Positions 3,398 through 12,145 of a DNA stretch of 13,840 bases are shown in pieces (within the stretch, counting starts at the first letter, position 1; every line of letters begins with the position of its first letter). A program made the translations under genes and the position numbers. The stretch comes from a virus. A model generated the notes under the pieces. The model worked only from the letters and a program-made list of their open reading frames with translations, searched no databases and was not told where the DNA came from. Location of the stretch: UHGV virus genome UHGV-0179107; one strand, given 5' to 3'.

Positions 3398-3783
3398 TAA
3401 TATATAAAATATTCTCTAATACCCTGCTCATCGCACATCTTGCCAAGCTGATCAGGGGTAATTAGCAATTCGTAGATATTCGATTTGCCCTGTTCTCGTT
3501 TAACGTTTATCAGACCTGCAGCTTCTAATGTTTTGATTGCCGACCTTACTGTTTTCTCTGTAACATCATAATCGTCTGCTAATGTCTGCGTCGAAAGCTC
3601 TGAGATAATTATTTCTTCACCCTCCTTAAAAGAATAACTTACCATTTCACCATAAATTGTTACCTCCAACAAATTTAAGTGAAATCTTTCTTTATTGGTT
3701 GCAGTTTTTGCAATCGGATTTTTAAAAGTGTATTTGATGAAACGTTTAAAAATGGGAGTAAAATTTTCATCGTTGTTTGCCAT
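3397..3783 (-). CDS. Truncated paralog of the adjacent initiator (about 128 aa): winged-helix DNA-binding domain only
   Basis: Clear paralogy with the N-terminus of the 305-aa protein (NFTPIFKRFIKYTF vs PFTPSFDFFIQYDF; GKSNIYELLITPDQLGKMCDEQG vs GKSNHYELLKTPDQLLDMCIEKG). The track start at 3798 is a TTG that overlaps the SD; ATG 3783-3781 with GGAGG 8 nt upstream is the likely start. Confidence 0.65.
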   Translation of the reverse strand: MANNDENFTPIFKRFIKYTFKNPIAKTATNKERFHLNLLEVTIYGEMVSYSFKEGEEIIISELSTQTLADDYDVTEKTVRSAIKTLEAAGLINVKREQGKSNIYELLITPDQLGKMCDEQGIREYFIY

Positions 3784-4017: not shown

Positions 4018-4138
4018 AATGAGGCCTCCTATAATTCGAATCAGAATGATATACGGTTAAAAAGAAACGGGAACTAATAGCTCCCGCCAGTTAATTAAGG
4101 AAATCCACTATGATGACTTAGTGTATCCCTATGCTTTA

Positions 4139-4170
4139 TATTTTATCAGACATTCGTCAAATTGTCAACA
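4139..4170 (-). promoter_or_regulatory. Candidate sigma70 promoter for the leftward operon (-35 TTGACA, 17-nt spacer, -10 TAAAAT)
   Basis: Minus-strand reading: TGTTGACAATTTGAcgaatgtctgaTAAAAT. The first 14 nt are identical to the -35 region of the capsid promoter at 8017-8030, and the spacers are similar. About 115 nt of leader would precede ATG 4017. Confidence 0.4.
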
Positions 4171-4340
4171 ATCTTTTTGTATTTATCTATCATTTTTTCT
4201 TCAAGATTGTCGATTGCAGTCACTCCGGCTATGTAGGCAACACCGCACCACAGTACAGCCAGGTTGATGATCGCTATTGCATCAGTAATTTCCACATTGA
4301 CCTCCGGATCTGTTTCTCCCCCTATTTATAATCTTATCAT

Positions 4341-4489
4341 ATTGTCAACCAATTGTCAATGAGAATTATTATCATTTAGGTGTGCTATAGGTACAAGCAA
4401 GTCCACAGCAAAGGGGTAAGCATTATTAATGGCCCCTACCGTGTCAAAACCAAAATCACTTATAGCATTTATTCAATAAGATTGTCAAT
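4341..4489 (-). promoter_or_regulatory. Three further ATTGTCAA(C/T) sites (4341-4349, 4352-4360, 4481-4489), each a TTGACA hexamer on the minus strand
   Basis: Seen directly. With the site at 4161-4169 this makes four same-orientation copies in about 330 bp. Possible -10 elements are weak (TAAGAT, TATAAG), so these may be operators or secondary promoters. Confidence 0.35.
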
Positions 4490-4801
4490 GGCCCACAACA
4501 TGCCTTCCTGCAGAAGGTTTGATTTTAATCAAATCCACGAAGTGGACCACAGGAGGGAGAGCACTTTTTGCCTTAGGCGCTCTAAAATCAATTCTAACGC
4601 GATTTAGAGGTCAGGTAATGCAATTGCACTACTCACCACAGTTAATGCAGCCAGAAGGCCATTTAGGGGCCCTATTTTTGATTTATGAGTGTCATATTAC
4701 GTGCATGCACGCGCGGGAGACTCTTTGCTGCCTCCTTCCGGCGCTGGCAAGCTTTCGGCAGCGGTCCACATTGTGGGCCTCATGCTGACGCATTCGCCGG
4801 A

Positions 4802-4963
4802 CCCACACAGACCCGAAGGGCTTAGCCATGGGCTAAGGTGCCGTAGGCACTCCCACACACAATTGGGTGACGTGTCATGTATGGAATACATTGTCACCCC
4901 ACACACAGGCCGACGTAGTCGGTTTAGCTGTATAGCTAAAGTCACAAAGTGACCCACACACAG
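4802..4963 (+). repeat. Array of about 50-bp units, each beginning with CCCACACACAG and containing different short perfect palindromes
   Basis: Punctuation motif at 4802, 4852, 4898 and 4954. Palindromes: CTTAGCC-ATG-GGCTAAG (4821-4837), GTGCC-GTA-GGCAC (4838-4850), GGGTGAC...GTCACCC (4865-4899), CCGAC-GTA-GTCGG (4910-4922), TTAGCT-GTAT-AGCTAA (4924-4939), GTCAC-AAA-GTGAC (4941-4953). Confidence 0.6.
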
Positions 4964-4966
4964 ATT

Positions 4967-5003
4967 GCCTAAAGAGTCGCTCATGCTCTTTAGGCTTTCA
5001 TTT
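4967..5003 (+). terminator. Candidate intrinsic terminator closing the hairpin array
   Basis: Perfect 10-bp stem GCCTAAAGAG / CTCTTTAGGC (4967-4976 and 4986-4995) with a 9-nt loop, followed by TTTCATTT. The minus-strand side has no U-tract. Confidence 0.4.
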
Positions 5004-5124
5004 GTGGGTTAAGCTTTTCCCTTAGAAAACCTTCCCCACTCTCTGATCCCTCCCCATCCCCCCTTGTTGGGGGATTATAGGGGGAGTTCTTTTTATTGAT
5101 CTATTCTCTTTATCTATTAGTGTG

Positions 5125-5270
5125 GGAAATCCCAGCATATATATGTAGGAAATTCCCGCATATATATGTTGGAAATACCAGCATATCCCTTTCTGTGTAT
5201 GGTTGAATATGCGGGAAATTCCAGCATATCGATCCCTATGCATGTGGGAACATGTGGGAAATACCGACAG
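5125..5270. repeat. Iteron array, candidate replication origin: GGAAAT-N-CC-(A/C)-GCATAT repeats
   Basis: Four 16-bp copies at 5125-5140, 5148-5163, 5171-5186 and 5214-5229. The first three are spaced exactly 23 bp (about two helical turns), the fourth is 43 bp further. Degenerate copies follow (tandem CATGTGGGAA x2 at 5241-5260; GGAAATACCGACAG at 5257-5270; GGAAATATGCAGATC at 5403-5417). Confidence 0.55.
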
Positions 5271-6332
5271 GTCTGTGTGGCTTAATTTGACTTGATATTG
5301 ACTAACAAAGGCCTTCGTAGAAGGTTTGAGATGAGCTCAAATCACCATATGTGACTAACAAACCTCTCTCCTCTCTCTTTGCTTTGATTTTCTCTCATGT
5401 GTGGGAAATATGCAGATCAACACCCTTTGATTTTATCGACAGGTATGTTGACACGCCCTACGGTTGTGAGGCCCGGGCATCATAAGTATGGCCCCTGGGG
5501 CAGTCCATCCTTCCCTCACACAGGACAATGAATACACTCCTTGCAGTCATGAATACATAAAGAACATGAAAGACTGTTCACACCAACACGCCGATAAATT
5601 GCCTGAAGAGGCTTACATGGTGGGATTGTTGTGTGGGTAATAGTGATCATGCTAACAGATTATGTTAATCAGATGTAAATTCCGATTTTGTGGTCTGCAG
5701 ATAGCAAACTATACTGGTTAGATGATCAGGGGAATGACTACAAAACAATCAAAAATGTGGGATATAGACATCTATACTTCTAATGTGCTGTGTGGGGTGT
5801 TAGTGCGTCCTAACCTCTAAGTCATTGATTTTAAGTGTTGGGAGAGATGCATTTAACATAATAGATCTTATCTACACTAATAAAGCGCACTACAAAATCT
5901 GATTTAAAAATCATGATAAGGAGGCCCAGAATTTACGTACAGTCACCTGAATAAATAATGTGCACAACATACAGCAAAGCTTAAGAATTAACATAATAGC
6001 AACGTGGTCAGTAGTGGTGTGATATTTGAGAATTGTTAGAAGAAAAAAGGGAGGTGGGGGAGCGCCTGCCTGGCACCTCAGACGAACATCTGACGGGTAT
6101 TAATACCGCTAATGGATATTTCTGACACCCACACCCAAGACCGCTTTCAGCACATAGCCATACACCGCACAGGATGCAATTGTGATAACAAAAAATGGGG
6201 GTGTAATAGGGTAGGCTGTCTTTCATCAAAATCACTTCTACGACGTTACCAGAGTGATAACAAGAAAACAGGCCTCTAAGATTATCTGTGCCTCGTTTTT
6301 AGCTTTTTGTGTGGTTACCAGGTGAAGAGGAA

Positions 6333-6497
6333 ATGTTAAAAACTGTTCATTTTATGCACAAACTAGTCAGGGTGATACCACAAAATGAGGCGCAAGAAAT
6401 CCAGCTGCAGATAATCTTGCAGCCAGATTTTGCAGTTTTTGAGGGTATGTTAAATTTGACAAAAATAGAGAAAAGGCTTATTAAGATAACTTATTGA
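6333..6497 (+). CDS. Possible small ORF (54 aa from ATG 6333), weak
   Basis: ORF track 6309..6497 starts at a GTG; the internal ATG 6333 has GGTGA about 7 nt upstream. It is the only moderately plausible ORF in the 2.7-kb gap, with no recognisable family. Could be non-coding. Confidence 0.2.
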   Translation: MLKTVHFMHKLVRVIPQNEAQEIQLQIILQPDFAVFEGMLNLTKIEKRLIKITY

Positions 6498-6571
6498 TTT
6501 TATTAGTATTATGAAAAAGGGTTACACCCTCTCTCTTACTCTGTCAACCGGGCGGTTGTGGCATAAAACGG

Positions 6572-6697
6572 ATTAAATCAATAAATAGGCATTAAATACC
6601 CATTAAATACCCCTTAAATAGGGGTTAATTGCTCAGGACTGAAAGGAGTGTAAATAGGGGATAAATAGGGGTTAATTGAGGGATAAATAAAAAGGGG
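6572..6697. repeat. AT-rich direct-repeat cluster: TAAATAGGGGTTAATTG x2 plus shorter TAAATAGG and ATTAAAT copies
   Basis: 17-mer at 6615-6631 and 6662-6678 (47 bp apart); TAAATAGGGG at 6651-6660; TAAATAGG at 6582-6589; ATTAAAT at 6572, 6591 and 6603. Lies just beyond the terminator of the membrane-protein operon. Confidence 0.55.
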
Positions 6698-6710
6698 CCG
6701 TGATGGCCCC
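6681..6710 (-). terminator. Rho-independent terminator of the leftward HTH / membrane-protein operon
   Basis: Minus strand: GGGGCC-AUCAC-GGCCCC (plus 6694-6710) followed by UUUUUAUUUAU, starting 8 nt after the TGA at 6721-6719. Confidence 0.7.
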
Positions 6711-6718
6711 CTGGTAGG

Positions 6719-7237
6719 TCAGAACAGTTTTTTGCTTTTTCTCCAACTAACGCCGCGTTTGCCTATGCTCAGCCAGCCGCCAGCGAATCGGGTACCTGCG
6801 GTAACACTAGCTCCCCTGGTGCCTACATGTGCATAAATACCTGCCCCACTGCTACCACCGCTTCTACGGCTTTTTCCGCCATCGATATCGAGGAGAGCAC
6901 AGATTGCACCCCACAAAAAGCCAACCAACCAATATACATATGCTAAGCCTAAAACACCCCAGGTTACCGCCCACCCCTCTAGACTAGTGGGGAAGTAGAA
7001 AGCATTGAGAACAGCATTTATAGGACGGATCAGGAGAGAATCTATAAAACCAATATCCACATGAAACGGGCCATCACCGAACTTGCTACTGCCAATAAAC
7101 AAGGTAGCAGGGTAAAAACAGATAGCCATTAACCAAGGCCCGGCTATCAAAAACGCTGCAGTGTACTGAAAGAACATTTTTACCAGTTCTTTAAAAAGCC
7201 TTTTATTTACTGATTCTTTGTCTTTCTGGAATAACAT
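6719..7237 (-). CDS. Membrane protein (172 aa) with two predicted transmembrane helices and a Gly/Ser/Arg-rich C-terminal tail
   Basis: ORF track. Hydrophobic segments FFQYTAAFLIAGPWLMAICFYPATLFI and WAVTWGVLGLAYVYWLVGFLWGAICALL; tail GKSRRSGGSSGAGIYAHVGTRGAS...SWRKSKK. A purine-rich SD-like stretch precedes ATG 7237. No family recognised. Confidence 0.65.
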   Translation of the reverse strand: MLFQKDKESVNKRLFKELVKMFFQYTAAFLIAGPWLMAICFYPATLFIGSSKFGDGPFHVDIGFIDSLLIRPINAVLNAFYFPTSLEGWAVTWGVLGLAYVYWLVGFLWGAICALLDIDGGKSRRSGGSSGAGIYAHVGTRGASVTAGTRFAGGWLSIGKRGVSWRKSKKLF

Positions 7238-7555: not shown

Positions 7556-7597
7556 AAACTCCTCTCAATGCTGTTCATAAACTCATCTCAATGATGA
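7552..7597. repeat. Tandem 23-bp duplication spanning the RBS and start codon of the HTH gene
   Basis: Plus strand TCATAAACTCCTCTCAATGCTGT (7552-7574) and TCATAAACTCATCTCAATGATGA (7575-7597). On the minus strand the upstream copy creates an 8-codon uORF (MNSIERSL) whose TGA overlaps the HTH start codon. Confidence 0.6.
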
Positions 7598-7656
7598 TTA
7601 ATACAAAATCTAAGACTACCAGACCTATTAAAAATGCTTTGCCTCCTTTGCCCATC

Positions 7657-7779
7657 TCATACCTCCACACACAGAGCTAACATCAGGGCTAACACTCCAA
7701 CCACCTCAATTGCCTTAACCATGTGTGGGTGATGAAACCTAGCCTTTTGCCATGCGCTGGCACTGTTCTTGATACCCAT
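7657..7779 (-). CDS. Possible small hydrophobic peptide (40 aa), below the ORF-track cutoff
   Basis: Hand translation: MGIKNSASAWQKARFHHPHMVKAIEVVGVLALMLALCVEV. Its 5-prime leader shares a 15-mer (plus-strand TTTGCGAGAAGTTGA at 7791-7805 and 7249-7263), within a roughly 26-nt homologous region, with the leader of the membrane-protein gene. Confidence 0.3.
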   Translation of the reverse strand: MGIKNSASAWQKARFHHPHMVKAIEVVGVLALMLALCVEV

Positions 7780-8016
7780 ATCTATAACCTTTTGCGAGAA
7801 GTTGATTTGTTTGCTCGGTTGGGTGCTATCAATGCTCCCCTTCCTTGATTCGAACTATAGCCGGGTAAATCCCCGGAAAACATTGATATTGATCAAAAGA
7901 TATCTATCACGAATGAAAAAGTTATGATAGATGCTATGAGATGACGTATTGATGGGATTGATAGAGGTCTGAAAATACCGTTACCACGCTAATTATTAGA
8001 ATTTATATAATCAGGG

Positions 8017-8047
8017 TGTTGACAATTTGAGAGAATACTGATATAAT
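8017..8047 (+). promoter_or_regulatory. Consensus sigma70 promoter upstream of the capsid genes
   Basis: TTGACA (8019-8024), 17-nt spacer, TATAAT (8042-8047), with an AT-rich UP-like tract upstream (7985-8015). The 14-mer TGTTGACAATTTGA (8017-8030) is identical to the reverse complement of 4157-4170. Confidence 0.6.
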
Positions 8048-8190
8048 ATACATATACACCGTAAATCTTTGGTGAAAGTGATTTGCCGTATTTTCCTCCA
8101 AAGTAAAGGCGACCAGGTAGCGGTGCCGCCTTATAAATAACACTACCCTGATCATCGTTGAGTGGTCGATTAATTCTCCTATTGGGCTAG

Positions 8191-8199
8191 TTATCCACA
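8191..8199 (+). promoter_or_regulatory. Perfect DnaA-box consensus TTATCCACA in the capsid leader
   Basis: Exact 9-mer seen directly. It overlaps the left arm of an 8-bp inverted repeat CCACACAG / CTGTGTGG (8195-8202 and 8221-8228). Only one copy, so a chance match is possible. Confidence 0.3.
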
Positions 8200-8366
8200 C
8201 AGTTTTCTTTTGCGGGTTTTCTGTGTGGGTAGCTATCCCGAAAGGTATTTCCCCGCTGATGTGACCGCAGCCTGAACTGATTCGGGGGAGTGCCTTTCGT
8301 GATAGTGCTCTCAAGCAACCGTAACCATGTGCTATCAGCCAACTTTGTTGGTTTTCCTCATGTGGA

Positions 8367-8396
8367 ATAGCCCCCGCTTGGACGGTGCGGGGCTAT
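8367..8396 (+). terminator. Terminator-like or attenuator hairpin in the capsid leader
   Basis: ATAGCCCC(C)GC / GCGGGGCTAT stem with one bulged C and a 9-nt loop, followed by a pyrimidine-rich but imperfect U-tract (CTCCCTCTTCTTAT). Lies between the promoter and the first capsid-module gene. Confidence 0.3.
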
Positions 8397-8525
8397 CTCC
8401 CTCTTCTTATATCAATCTCCCTTTTAATAGATTTCCGGCATAACTTTTCGGCCCGAGCCTGTCGTAGTTCTAGAGGTTATGCCGGAACTCTTTGAGGGGA
8501 GTTAATTTAAATCGCAGGTGATCAA

Positions 8526-11618: not shown

Positions 11619-11959
11619 AAAAGACAATAGTGTTCTTTTGAGGCCGTAGTGATACACCACAAATCAGCCCCTTTCCACTTCTTTTTCTCGCGATTGGTCC
11701 CTTGTGAGAATCCTTTATCAGGTATGCATTGTCCCGTGCATGAGCGGTCGATAGAGCCAGCCTCTTTCCCGGACTGGTTAGGATTTAGTGCGCTGATTGA
11801 GCGCCGCTATCACTGTTAGCCTGTTTATCGTTGCCTGGTTTGTGCATCACTGCACCCCCTGGGCACCGGACCCGCCTCAAAGGTCGGATCATCACAATTG
11901 GCGGGGCGGTTTTATAGTCGCTTTAAGGTTTATAGGCCGGAGTTGACTTACCTTCCGGC

Positions 11960-12007
11960 AACCTGCTAACATTAGTCTCGCGAGAGGTTGATTTTTGTTA
12001 GCAGGTT
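11960..12007. repeat. Perfect 12-bp inverted repeat with a nested palindrome in the convergent intergenic region
   Basis: AACCTGCTAACA (11960-11971) and TGTTAGCAGGTT (11996-12007), separated by 24 nt that contain the 10-bp palindrome TCTCGCGAGA (11976-11985). Confidence 0.6.
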
Positions 12008-12036
12008 CGCCCCGCATCAAAAGGATACCGGAGAAG

Positions 12037-12067
12037 AGCCCCTTTGTTAACACTTAGGGGCTTTTTT
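12037..12067 (+). terminator. Intrinsic terminator, plus-strand orientation
   Basis: AGCCCCT (12037-12043) pairs with AGGGGCT (12056-12062) around a 12-nt loop, followed by TTTTT (12063-12067). The minus-strand side has an A-run before the stem and no U-tract after it. Confidence 0.5.
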
Positions 12068-12145
12068 CTTGCCTGGAGTTTATCCGGTTAAGCTAACTTA
12101 TTGATTTTGATCACAATATCAGTAAAGCTGCACTATCTTCCAGCA

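Follow-up and report, generated by a model that had tools for sequence, protein, structure and literature searches.

A conserved, gene-poor region of an Escherichia coli plasmid family with two parts that resemble non-coding elements of Vequintavirus phages

Among phage satellites, P4 (through the cos site of P2) and the cos-type Staphylococcus aureus pathogenicity islands (SaPIs), such as SaPIbov5, are small elements without a terminase or portal of their own, which carry a short copy of the sequence at which the genome ends of their helper are recognised, together with their own replication initiator and origin. P4 is also able to live as a plasmid. The capsid-forming phage-inducible chromosomal islands (PICIs), the PICI-like element (PLE) of Vibrio cholerae and the phage-inducible chromosomal minimalist islands (PICMI) make structural proteins of their own but rely on a helper for everything else; the helpers that PLE and PICMI exploit are virulent, and PLE has a large non-coding region with an iteron origin bound by its own RepA. 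To date, according to a 2025 review, only one plasmid satellite is known (PMC12282955). Here, we analysed UHGV virus genome UHGV-0179107, a stretch of 13,840 nucleotides (hereafter the window), in which an earlier reading of the letters alone (hereafter the original prediction) had singled out positions 4018–6718 as a gap of about 2.7 kb without a convincing open reading frame (ORF). This gap is non-coding except for one small gene, is under constraint, holds a plasmid origin, and has two parts that correspond to non-coding elements of Vequintavirus. The reading that we prefer, with a probability of roughly 55%, is that it serves as a cis-acting control hub for a satellite of rV5-like (Vequintavirus) phages, one that lives as a plasmid.

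The original prediction had placed the gap inside a phage genome. The window is instead a whole circular plasmid of E. coli, ~13.8 kb in size, with structural genes related to those of Vequintavirus, and is neither a phage genome nor a cryptic prophage. It matched seven complete E. coli plasmids (13.2–13.7 kb) with 92–95% identity over 75–88% of its length, and represents one full circle because the tape-measure gene spans both of its ends. The family counts at least ten complete records and was also present in three metagenome contigs; no relatives were found among the GTDB representative genomes, and the capsid family is restricted to E. coli at an identity of at least 82%, the 82% relative sitting on a 4.9-kb contig without the gap. 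A further related record, NZ_CP043822.1, is a 39.6-kb head-to-tail trimer of the plasmid, and is either a real multimer, which would be of interest for concatemer packaging, or an artefact of long-read assembly.

The plasmid encodes a tape measure (715 aa), an HK97-type major capsid protein (350 aa), an O-like replication initiator, Rep (305 aa, with matches to the O-like and HTH_36 families), and a Dit-like tail-tube initiator (270 aa). All ORFs besides these four are shorter than 175 aa, including those for a tail protein (152 aa), a Rep-related protein (133 aa) and a helix-turn-helix (HTH) protein (86 aa), so that a portal and a large terminase cannot be encoded; family searches of the window proteins likewise returned no match to terminase or portal families, and no integrase was found. 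Compared with the proteins of MaxTheCat, an rV5-like Vequintavirus of about 135–136 kb, identity was 51% for the tail-tube initiator, 45% for the 152-aa tail protein and 25% for the tape measure, and more than 5 kb of the plasmid consists of capsid, tape-measure and tail genes related to Vequintavirus. The resemblance extends to three proteins and two non-coding elements, and is one of sequence similarity only. With no ORF long enough for a portal or large terminase, a satellite identity is probable, and the plasmid is probably a resident satellite, or a defective relative, of rV5-like phages; the family appears to be undescribed, as our literature search found no paper on it.

The plasmid thus shares with P4 and the cos-type SaPIs its small size without terminase or portal, its own initiator and origin, and a putative short copy of a helper's genome-end recognition sequence. 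It differs from them in that the putative helper is no cos phage but a virulent 136-kb myovirus whose genome ends in direct repeats of 459 bp, in having genes of its own for the major capsid protein, the tape measure and the tail-tube initiator, and in being a plasmid in every record, with no integrase; its packaging is a prediction from sequence. The same structural genes liken it to the capsid-forming PICIs, PLE and PICMI, and a putative virulent helper would liken it to the latter two. However, those satellites are chromosomal islands with integrases, whereas this one is a plasmid, carries genes for tail length and tail initiation and not a full head module, and consists to ~30% of conserved non-coding DNA.

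With regard to coding content, the original prediction stood in that no ORF in the gap exceeds 95 aa, and failed at a single place, a 49-aa gene on the minus strand at 4146–4295, which leaves 4296–6718 (~2.4 kb) as the truly ORF-free part. This is a real small gene: the N-terminal half of its product is hydrophobic, every relative has the gene annotated, its frame is intact in 9/9, and its substitutions fall on codon positions 1/2/3 as 5/6/20, the pattern of control genes such as the capsid gene (43/19/142). In the NCBI annotation of nine related complete plasmids the equivalent 2.2–2.4 kb is empty except for this gene. It might be supposed that gene callers missed several more small protein genes (20–60 aa) in the gap, since one such gene exists and a second probable one lies outside it at 7657–7779, but none of the 32 other ORFs of at least 25 aa within 4131–6500 had an excess of third-position substitutions and many were broken in relatives (6309–6497 was intact in 0/9 and 6112–6279 in 4/9), nor did the six-frame translations of 4296–6718 match any PHROGs family at E ≤0.1; we consider this explanation very improbable. 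The 73-aa ORF at 5022–5243, dismissed earlier as translated iterons, does overlap the iterons and was intact in none of the nine relatives.

An origin of the gap in decayed phage genes, such as a repressor, Q or lysis genes, in a cryptic element would suit a long, ORF-poor region on an element that has lost most phage functions, and the original prediction had named such remnants as the finding that would speak against function. None appeared: besides the empty PHROGs search, neither megablast nor blastn with the gap as query yielded a match among 50,697 phage records, and the phage link described below emerged via protein similarity only, and then from sensitive searching within a single phage genome. 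In an alignment of ten elements, the comparison that had been proposed at the outset, the gap was present in all relatives with the same layout and conservation formed a mosaic: 4168–4367 was 96–99% conserved, 4400–5560 was variable and rich in insertions and deletions, and 5560–6520 was 94–100% conserved, equal to the structural genes. Nucleotide diversity across 5560–6470 was 0.041, compared with 0.066–0.136 at third codon positions of nine neighbouring genes (~2–3 times slower), and conservation above that of synonymous sites points to purifying selection on this block and not to decay, an explanation that we regard as largely refuted. Slow evolution without codon-position bias in any gap ORF apart from the 49-aa gene bears out the earlier preference for function.

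The first of the two parts with a phage counterpart corresponds to the replication origin of Vequintavirus, a region of which we found no description in the literature searched. In MaxTheCat, this origin (130960–131951) contains the gene for a 116-aa winged-helix initiator (phrog_12838, 'replication initiation protein', E 5e-80), after which come four 21–22-bp iterons CTGTCCGTGATACGGACA, an AT-rich stretch, a G+C-rich hairpin, TGTGTGGG and an element of ~110 nt. The latter segment is unannotated in most phage records; one record places a hypothetical protein of 56 aa over part of it, probably spuriously. On the minus strand, the plasmid presents its features in the same order, i.e. iterons, an AT-rich stretch, hairpins with TGTGTGGG, a homologous element and then AGGGCCCCTAAAT. 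Common to both modules are a winged-helix initiator, iterons of 21–23 bp, the AT-rich stretch, one or more hairpins with TGTGTGGG and the ~110-nt element followed by AGGCCCCTAAAT, and both Rep and the 133-aa protein resemble the winged helix of the phage initiator (E 6e-5 and 1e-6, respectively). The modules differ in that their iteron sequences are unrelated, Rep, at 305 aa, has an additional C-terminal part, the plasmid has its initiator gene on the opposite side of the module, and the hairpin/TGTGTGGG unit of the plasmid is multiplied up to four times.

The element itself, ~106 nt on the minus strand at 4707–4812, comprises a closing helix P1 (TGTGTGGG:CCCGCGCG), a small hairpin H1, a conserved AAUGUGGA and a long hairpin H2. 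It is homologous to MaxTheCat 131683–131794 (blastn E 2e-16; nhmmer E 1.2e-15; 84% identity over a 63-nt core), and a covariance model identified a single copy in each satellite and in each Vequintavirus genome (75–103 bits), with no extra copies in either. Structures were compared across three lineages, namely two satellite types, ~60% identical here, and the phages. H2 occurs in the same place with unrelated stems (GCUGCC/GGCAGC, GUCCGGAU/AUCCGGAC and ACCGAC/GUCGGU); its six pairs are 100% paired, and four of them have changed on both sides and are thus compensated across the three lineages. Overall, 99% of cells were paired, versus 28–58% when partners were slid by 1–3 columns (at most one pair changed on both sides in these controls), and RNAalifold on the same hand-made alignment returned the same two helices. 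G.U pairs, a recurring CCCUUCGGG hairpin and a UUCG loop suggest a preference for the minus strand of the plasmid. The most likely active form of the element on this strand is RNA, or else single-stranded DNA, at a priming or loading step. Such a role would recall the origin elements of RSF1010 (ssiA/ssiB of oriV), ColE1 (RNA II) and T4 (the R-loop origins oriF/oriG), with which it shares iterons, an AT- or G+C-rich stretch and a strand-specific hairpin element in order, and conservation of structure rather than of loop sequence; it has no sequence similarity to them. A conserved block at 4613–4672 (93%) shares the words CAGGTAATGCAATTGCAC (17/18, inverted with respect to the phage) and AGGGCCCCTAAAT with the phage origin. 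We propose that 4613–5030 forms the rest of a phage-type origin module ending in the structured element, which would allow the replication machinery of the helper to copy the satellite after infection. Outside the plasmid family and Vequintavirus, the only candidate from a pattern scan of IMG/VR was a weak one, at 3437–3544 (minus strand) of a 53-kb contig, L032, with 18 bits by the covariance model; agreement with the phage element continues past the search pattern into the flanks of this candidate, TGTGTGGGAA ... CCCGCGCGAG, which may represent a remote copy carried by an unrelated phage.

Adjoining the element, an array of four modules at 4802–4960 (minus strand), each consisting of a unique hairpin and CTGTGTG(TG)GG, varies between one and four modules among relatives and includes one hairpin with a UUCG loop on the minus strand. 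A hairpin array had been noticed here in the original prediction, and folding z-scores of −3.6 to −6.9 over 4800–5000 agree with it; those over 4900–5170 ranged from −3 to −7. The dispersed sites that had been reported across the gap were equally real: the window has 11 copies of TGTGTGGG, where 0.28 are expected and 0/200 shuffles reached that count, and their orientation flips at the iterons, on the far side of which plus-strand copies lie at 5398, 5630 and 5789. The phage has 20 copies, most of them inside genes and without a common context. As a general phage promoter, a DnaA box or Chi, TGTGTGGG was rejected, as it differs from all three consensus sequences.

The plasmid's own origin lies beyond the array. 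The iterons named in the original prediction were confirmed as five 23-nt copies (TGTGGGAAATNCCAGCATAT) at 5121–5275 on the plus strand, spaced by 23, 23, 43 and 43 nt, and are the direct repeats of an iteron-type (theta) origin. An AT-rich stretch (5087–5120; ~19% G+C), likely the DNA unwinding element, directly abuts the first iteron, and a segment of C-runs and G-runs occupies 5030–5086 (5030–5120 is 80–89% conserved). Iterons are of several sequence types among relatives, and the N-terminal third of Rep follows them, with 93–100% identity within an iteron type and 50–64% between most types, although in the relative L003, with type C iterons, it is 80% identical to that of type B; the remaining two-thirds of Rep recombine independently of iteron type. 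This co-variation, together with the AT-rich stretch and the promoter-like sites described below, favours the composite origin and regulatory hub that had been suggested for the gap. Exact DnaA boxes (TTWTNCACA) occur only at 6352, 6836 and 8191, with none less than 1 kb from the iterons; such boxes beside iterons are common in this family of origins but not universal. In uninfected cells, 5087–5275 would be used by Rep for plasmid maintenance. In one relative, L010 (NZ_CP020521.1), Rep is annotated as a member of the MarR family, and an insertion of ~700 nt that carries separate repeats, TATCACATTGATATGTTGATA, aligns at window positions ~4963–5011; it retains type-B iterons and looks like a replication-module swap in progress.

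The second part with a phage counterpart is the conserved block of ~950 nt at 5560–6520, which is non-coding and thermodynamically unstructured and has a vocabulary of 10–18-nt words in common with the terminal non-coding region of the phage. When words common to 5300–6720 and the phage genome were counted in 2.5-kb sliding windows, the top five windows all lay at 89.5–93.5 kb, with 50 10-mers compared with a mean of 12.3 (s.d. 6.6) and 18 12-mers compared with 1.2 (z about 6–7), and the 45 common 10-mers observed exceeded the 11.6 ± 4.8 (maximum 27) obtained with dinucleotide shuffles of the plasmid block. MaxTheCat 90052–92583 is the phage's own 2.5-kb gene-free stretch and contains the physical genome ends: the 459-bp repeats marked at both ends of the Gotham record map to 91167–91625, and other phage records begin or end at the same two repeat boundaries. 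Terminal repeats of 458–459 bp and a fixed packaging start have been reported for rV5-like phages (PMC7471380, PMC6563267); some published records call Vequintavirus circularly permuted, and others report fixed ends. The gene-free region of the phage is marked by clusters of repeats of the types CTCTTCAGG, TGTGTGGG, GATATTTG and AAGGCAACTAT, and CTCTTCAGG, GATATTTG, TATGTTAAAT and TGTGGGATATAG are among the words that it has in common with the plasmid in both orientations and that are rare elsewhere in the phage. TATGTTAA, CTCTTCAGG and GATATTTG were also considered as genome-wide phage motifs and discarded, being concentrated in the terminal region.

The strongest common word, GATATTTGAGAATTGTTAGAAGAA at 6021–6044, equals phage positions 91576–91599 in 23/24 positions (z 9.2), and the motif GCCTGGCA (GCC/TGGCA) follows exactly 50 nt past the start of this 24-mer in both genomes, the slash marking the right repeat boundary of the phage. 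Together they form a two-part site on the plus strand at 6021–6075 that resembles the right end of the phage terminal repeat, was invariant in 10/10 satellites and was kept in the four phages examined, one of them with a single mismatch in the 24-mer. The identical spacing predicts a cut at 6070/6071, and we consider 6021–6075 a putative terminase recognition and cut site. We propose that 5560–6520 imitates the terminal non-coding region of the helper, including this two-part copy of its right repeat boundary, and that the helper's terminase would recognise and cut the site and package satellite DNA into capsids made of the satellite's own capsid protein. At 6716–6731, GTCAGAACAGTTTTTT resembles the left junction of the phage, GTCA/GACAAGTTTTTC, in 14/16 positions, which may be chance; with the right-junction-like site 650 nt to its left, the order is the reverse of that in the phage.

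Selection on the block might also act on RNA instead of DNA, if 5560–6520, and possibly 4600–5000, were the source of at least one long non-coding RNA from a new family, which could be a regulator, an antisense RNA or a decoy for factors of the helper. Purifying selection without coding signal would be expected of such a gene, the plus strand is purine-rich across 5400–6800 and bears the three TGTGTGGG copies noted above, and 4707–4812 is RNA-like in its G.U pairs and compensated stems. We nevertheless find this doubtful. Non-coding RNA genes had been one suggestion of the original prediction, but a scan with Rfam 15 (E up to 1) gave no match in the gap and ARAGORN no tRNA or tmRNA, and folding z-scores in 120-nt windows across 5560–6520 were mostly near zero, between −2 and +2, on both strands, so that a compact RNA fold in the block was rejected. 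There is moreover no convincing promoter/terminator pair around the block, and the occurrence of phage-common words in both orientations suits DNA sites better than RNA. The sole Rfam match in the window, to ctRNA_p42d at 12032–12072, lies outside the gap and scored 23.6 bits against a threshold of 50; Rfam searches of both phage regions gave only sub-threshold chance matches.

The main rival is that the gap is an ordinary plasmid maintenance region, with an origin, copy-number control and a partition or multimer-resolution site, and that its likeness to the phage stems from a shared ancestry of replication modules, no helper being involved. A Rep with iterons and an AT-rich stretch is what a plasmid typically has; since the winged helix of Rep has a distant relative in the phage initiator, homology alone could account for the likeness of the origin modules; the phased 11-bp repeats at the right end of the gap resemble a centromere layout; and all records found are plasmids from bacterial isolates, with none in IMG/VR. 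We judge it unlikely all the same. It leaves unexplained the >5 kb of Vequintavirus-related capsid, tape-measure and tail genes, the match to the terminal-repeat end (23/24 nt and the boundary motif at the same spacing) is unrelated to replication ancestry, and the plasmid has no partition NTPase gene.

Several points weigh against the interpretation of the gap as the control hub of a satellite. The absence of any copy from the IMG/VR viral contigs is weak negative evidence on helper-dependent induction, packaging and transfer. The alignment of the structured element was assembled manually, with the proposed structure as its guide, and covers only three to four independent lineages; its closing helix P1 is backed by complementarity only, with three invariant U.G pairs and no change on both sides, and as its variation consists only of C-to-U changes that keep G.U pairs it displays no true covariation, so that TGTGTGGG may be a protein-binding word rather than one half of P1. 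The combination of type-B iterons with an unrelated Rep in L010 is an exception to the co-variation of the two. No convincing counterpart of the left terminal-repeat boundary was found (the best similarity was not significant), ~900 nt of the conserved block fall outside any part to which we have given a role, and the words in common with the phage could reflect shared module ancestry rather than present-day exploitation.

A more specific proposal, which we advance tentatively and to which we give less than even odds, is that these plasmids make up a previously undescribed class of satellites that parasitise virulent rV5-like myoviruses, with the gap as a switch between two modes. In uninfected cells, the gap would act as an ordinary Rep/iteron origin; upon infection, the shared element would recruit the phage replisome, and the boundary mimic would direct packaging. 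Satellite DNA would then enter capsids of its own protein, on tails whose length would be set by the satellite's own tape measure. If true, a virulent phage group that is widely used in E. coli biocontrol and therapy would have a plasmid-borne satellite, which could lower phage yield and move DNA between strains. The comparison also indicates two unannotated elements in Vequintavirus itself, one an iteron origin that includes a conserved structured element, the other a candidate site for terminase where the terminal repeat ends, and for both of them the satellite copies provide a natural conservation filter for the bases that matter. More generally, long conserved ORF-free stretches in small mobile elements may be decodable through the non-coding DNA of their likely helpers.

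At the left end of the gap, 4018–4360 would, in our proposal, head the replication operon with promoters, an operator-like word and the 49-aa gene. A sigma-70-type promoter-like site on the minus strand at 4140–4168 (TTGACA-17-TAAAAT with TG; 11/12 matches) faces the leftward operon and overlaps the word ATTGTCAAC, which recurs nearby, in a stretch that is 96–99% conserved; ATTGTCAA occurs five times compared with 0.93 expected. A second such site (TTGACA-17-TAAGAT with TG), at 4331–4359 on the same strand and 96% conserved, lies upstream of the 49-aa gene. The leftward (rep) operon has in its leader a terminator-like hairpin at 4066–4088 (minus strand), with a 10-pair stem followed by a T-run, which is a possible attenuator. 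Between the origin and the hairpin array, a strong 11-pair hairpin followed by a T-run at 4967–4995 (plus strand; 91% conserved) is likewise terminator-like. Both palindromes of the original prediction exist, but the one at 4700–4711 sits in a variable stretch and that at 6096–6107 is broken in 4/10 relatives; a long-range complementarity between 4601–4615 and 5809–5823 was discarded because it is not kept in relatives. At the right end, an intrinsic terminator at 6692–6712 (minus strand; eight pairs, six of them G-C, then a T-run) ends the minus-strand operon of HTH and membrane-protein genes. The phased 11-bp repeats (TAAATAGGGG / TAAATACCCC) form two clusters on the plus strand at 6582–6689, vary in copy number among relatives and are probably an array of protein-binding sites; a parC-type plasmid centromere, which their layout resembles, was rejected as no ParM, ParA or TubZ-like gene is present.

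Two further stretches of the plasmid deserve mention. The second stretch, ~1 kb at 7556–8525, is conserved (diversity 0.05) and free of annotated genes; it contains a perfect DnaA box, TTATCCACA at 8191–8199, which overlaps an inverted TCCACACAG / CTGTGTGGG pair, as well as two more plus-strand TGTGTGGG sites at 7722 and 8222. It also includes an unannotated 40-aa ORF upstream of the HTH gene (7657–7779, minus strand), which is probably a real small gene, its substitutions falling on codon positions 1/2/3 as 1/1/11. The third stretch, 11619–12145, is non-coding and lies between the convergent tail and tape-measure operons; its diversity of 0.0155 is below that of the first and second codon positions of its neighbours, and the ctRNA_p42d near-match within it is a terminator-like hairpin.

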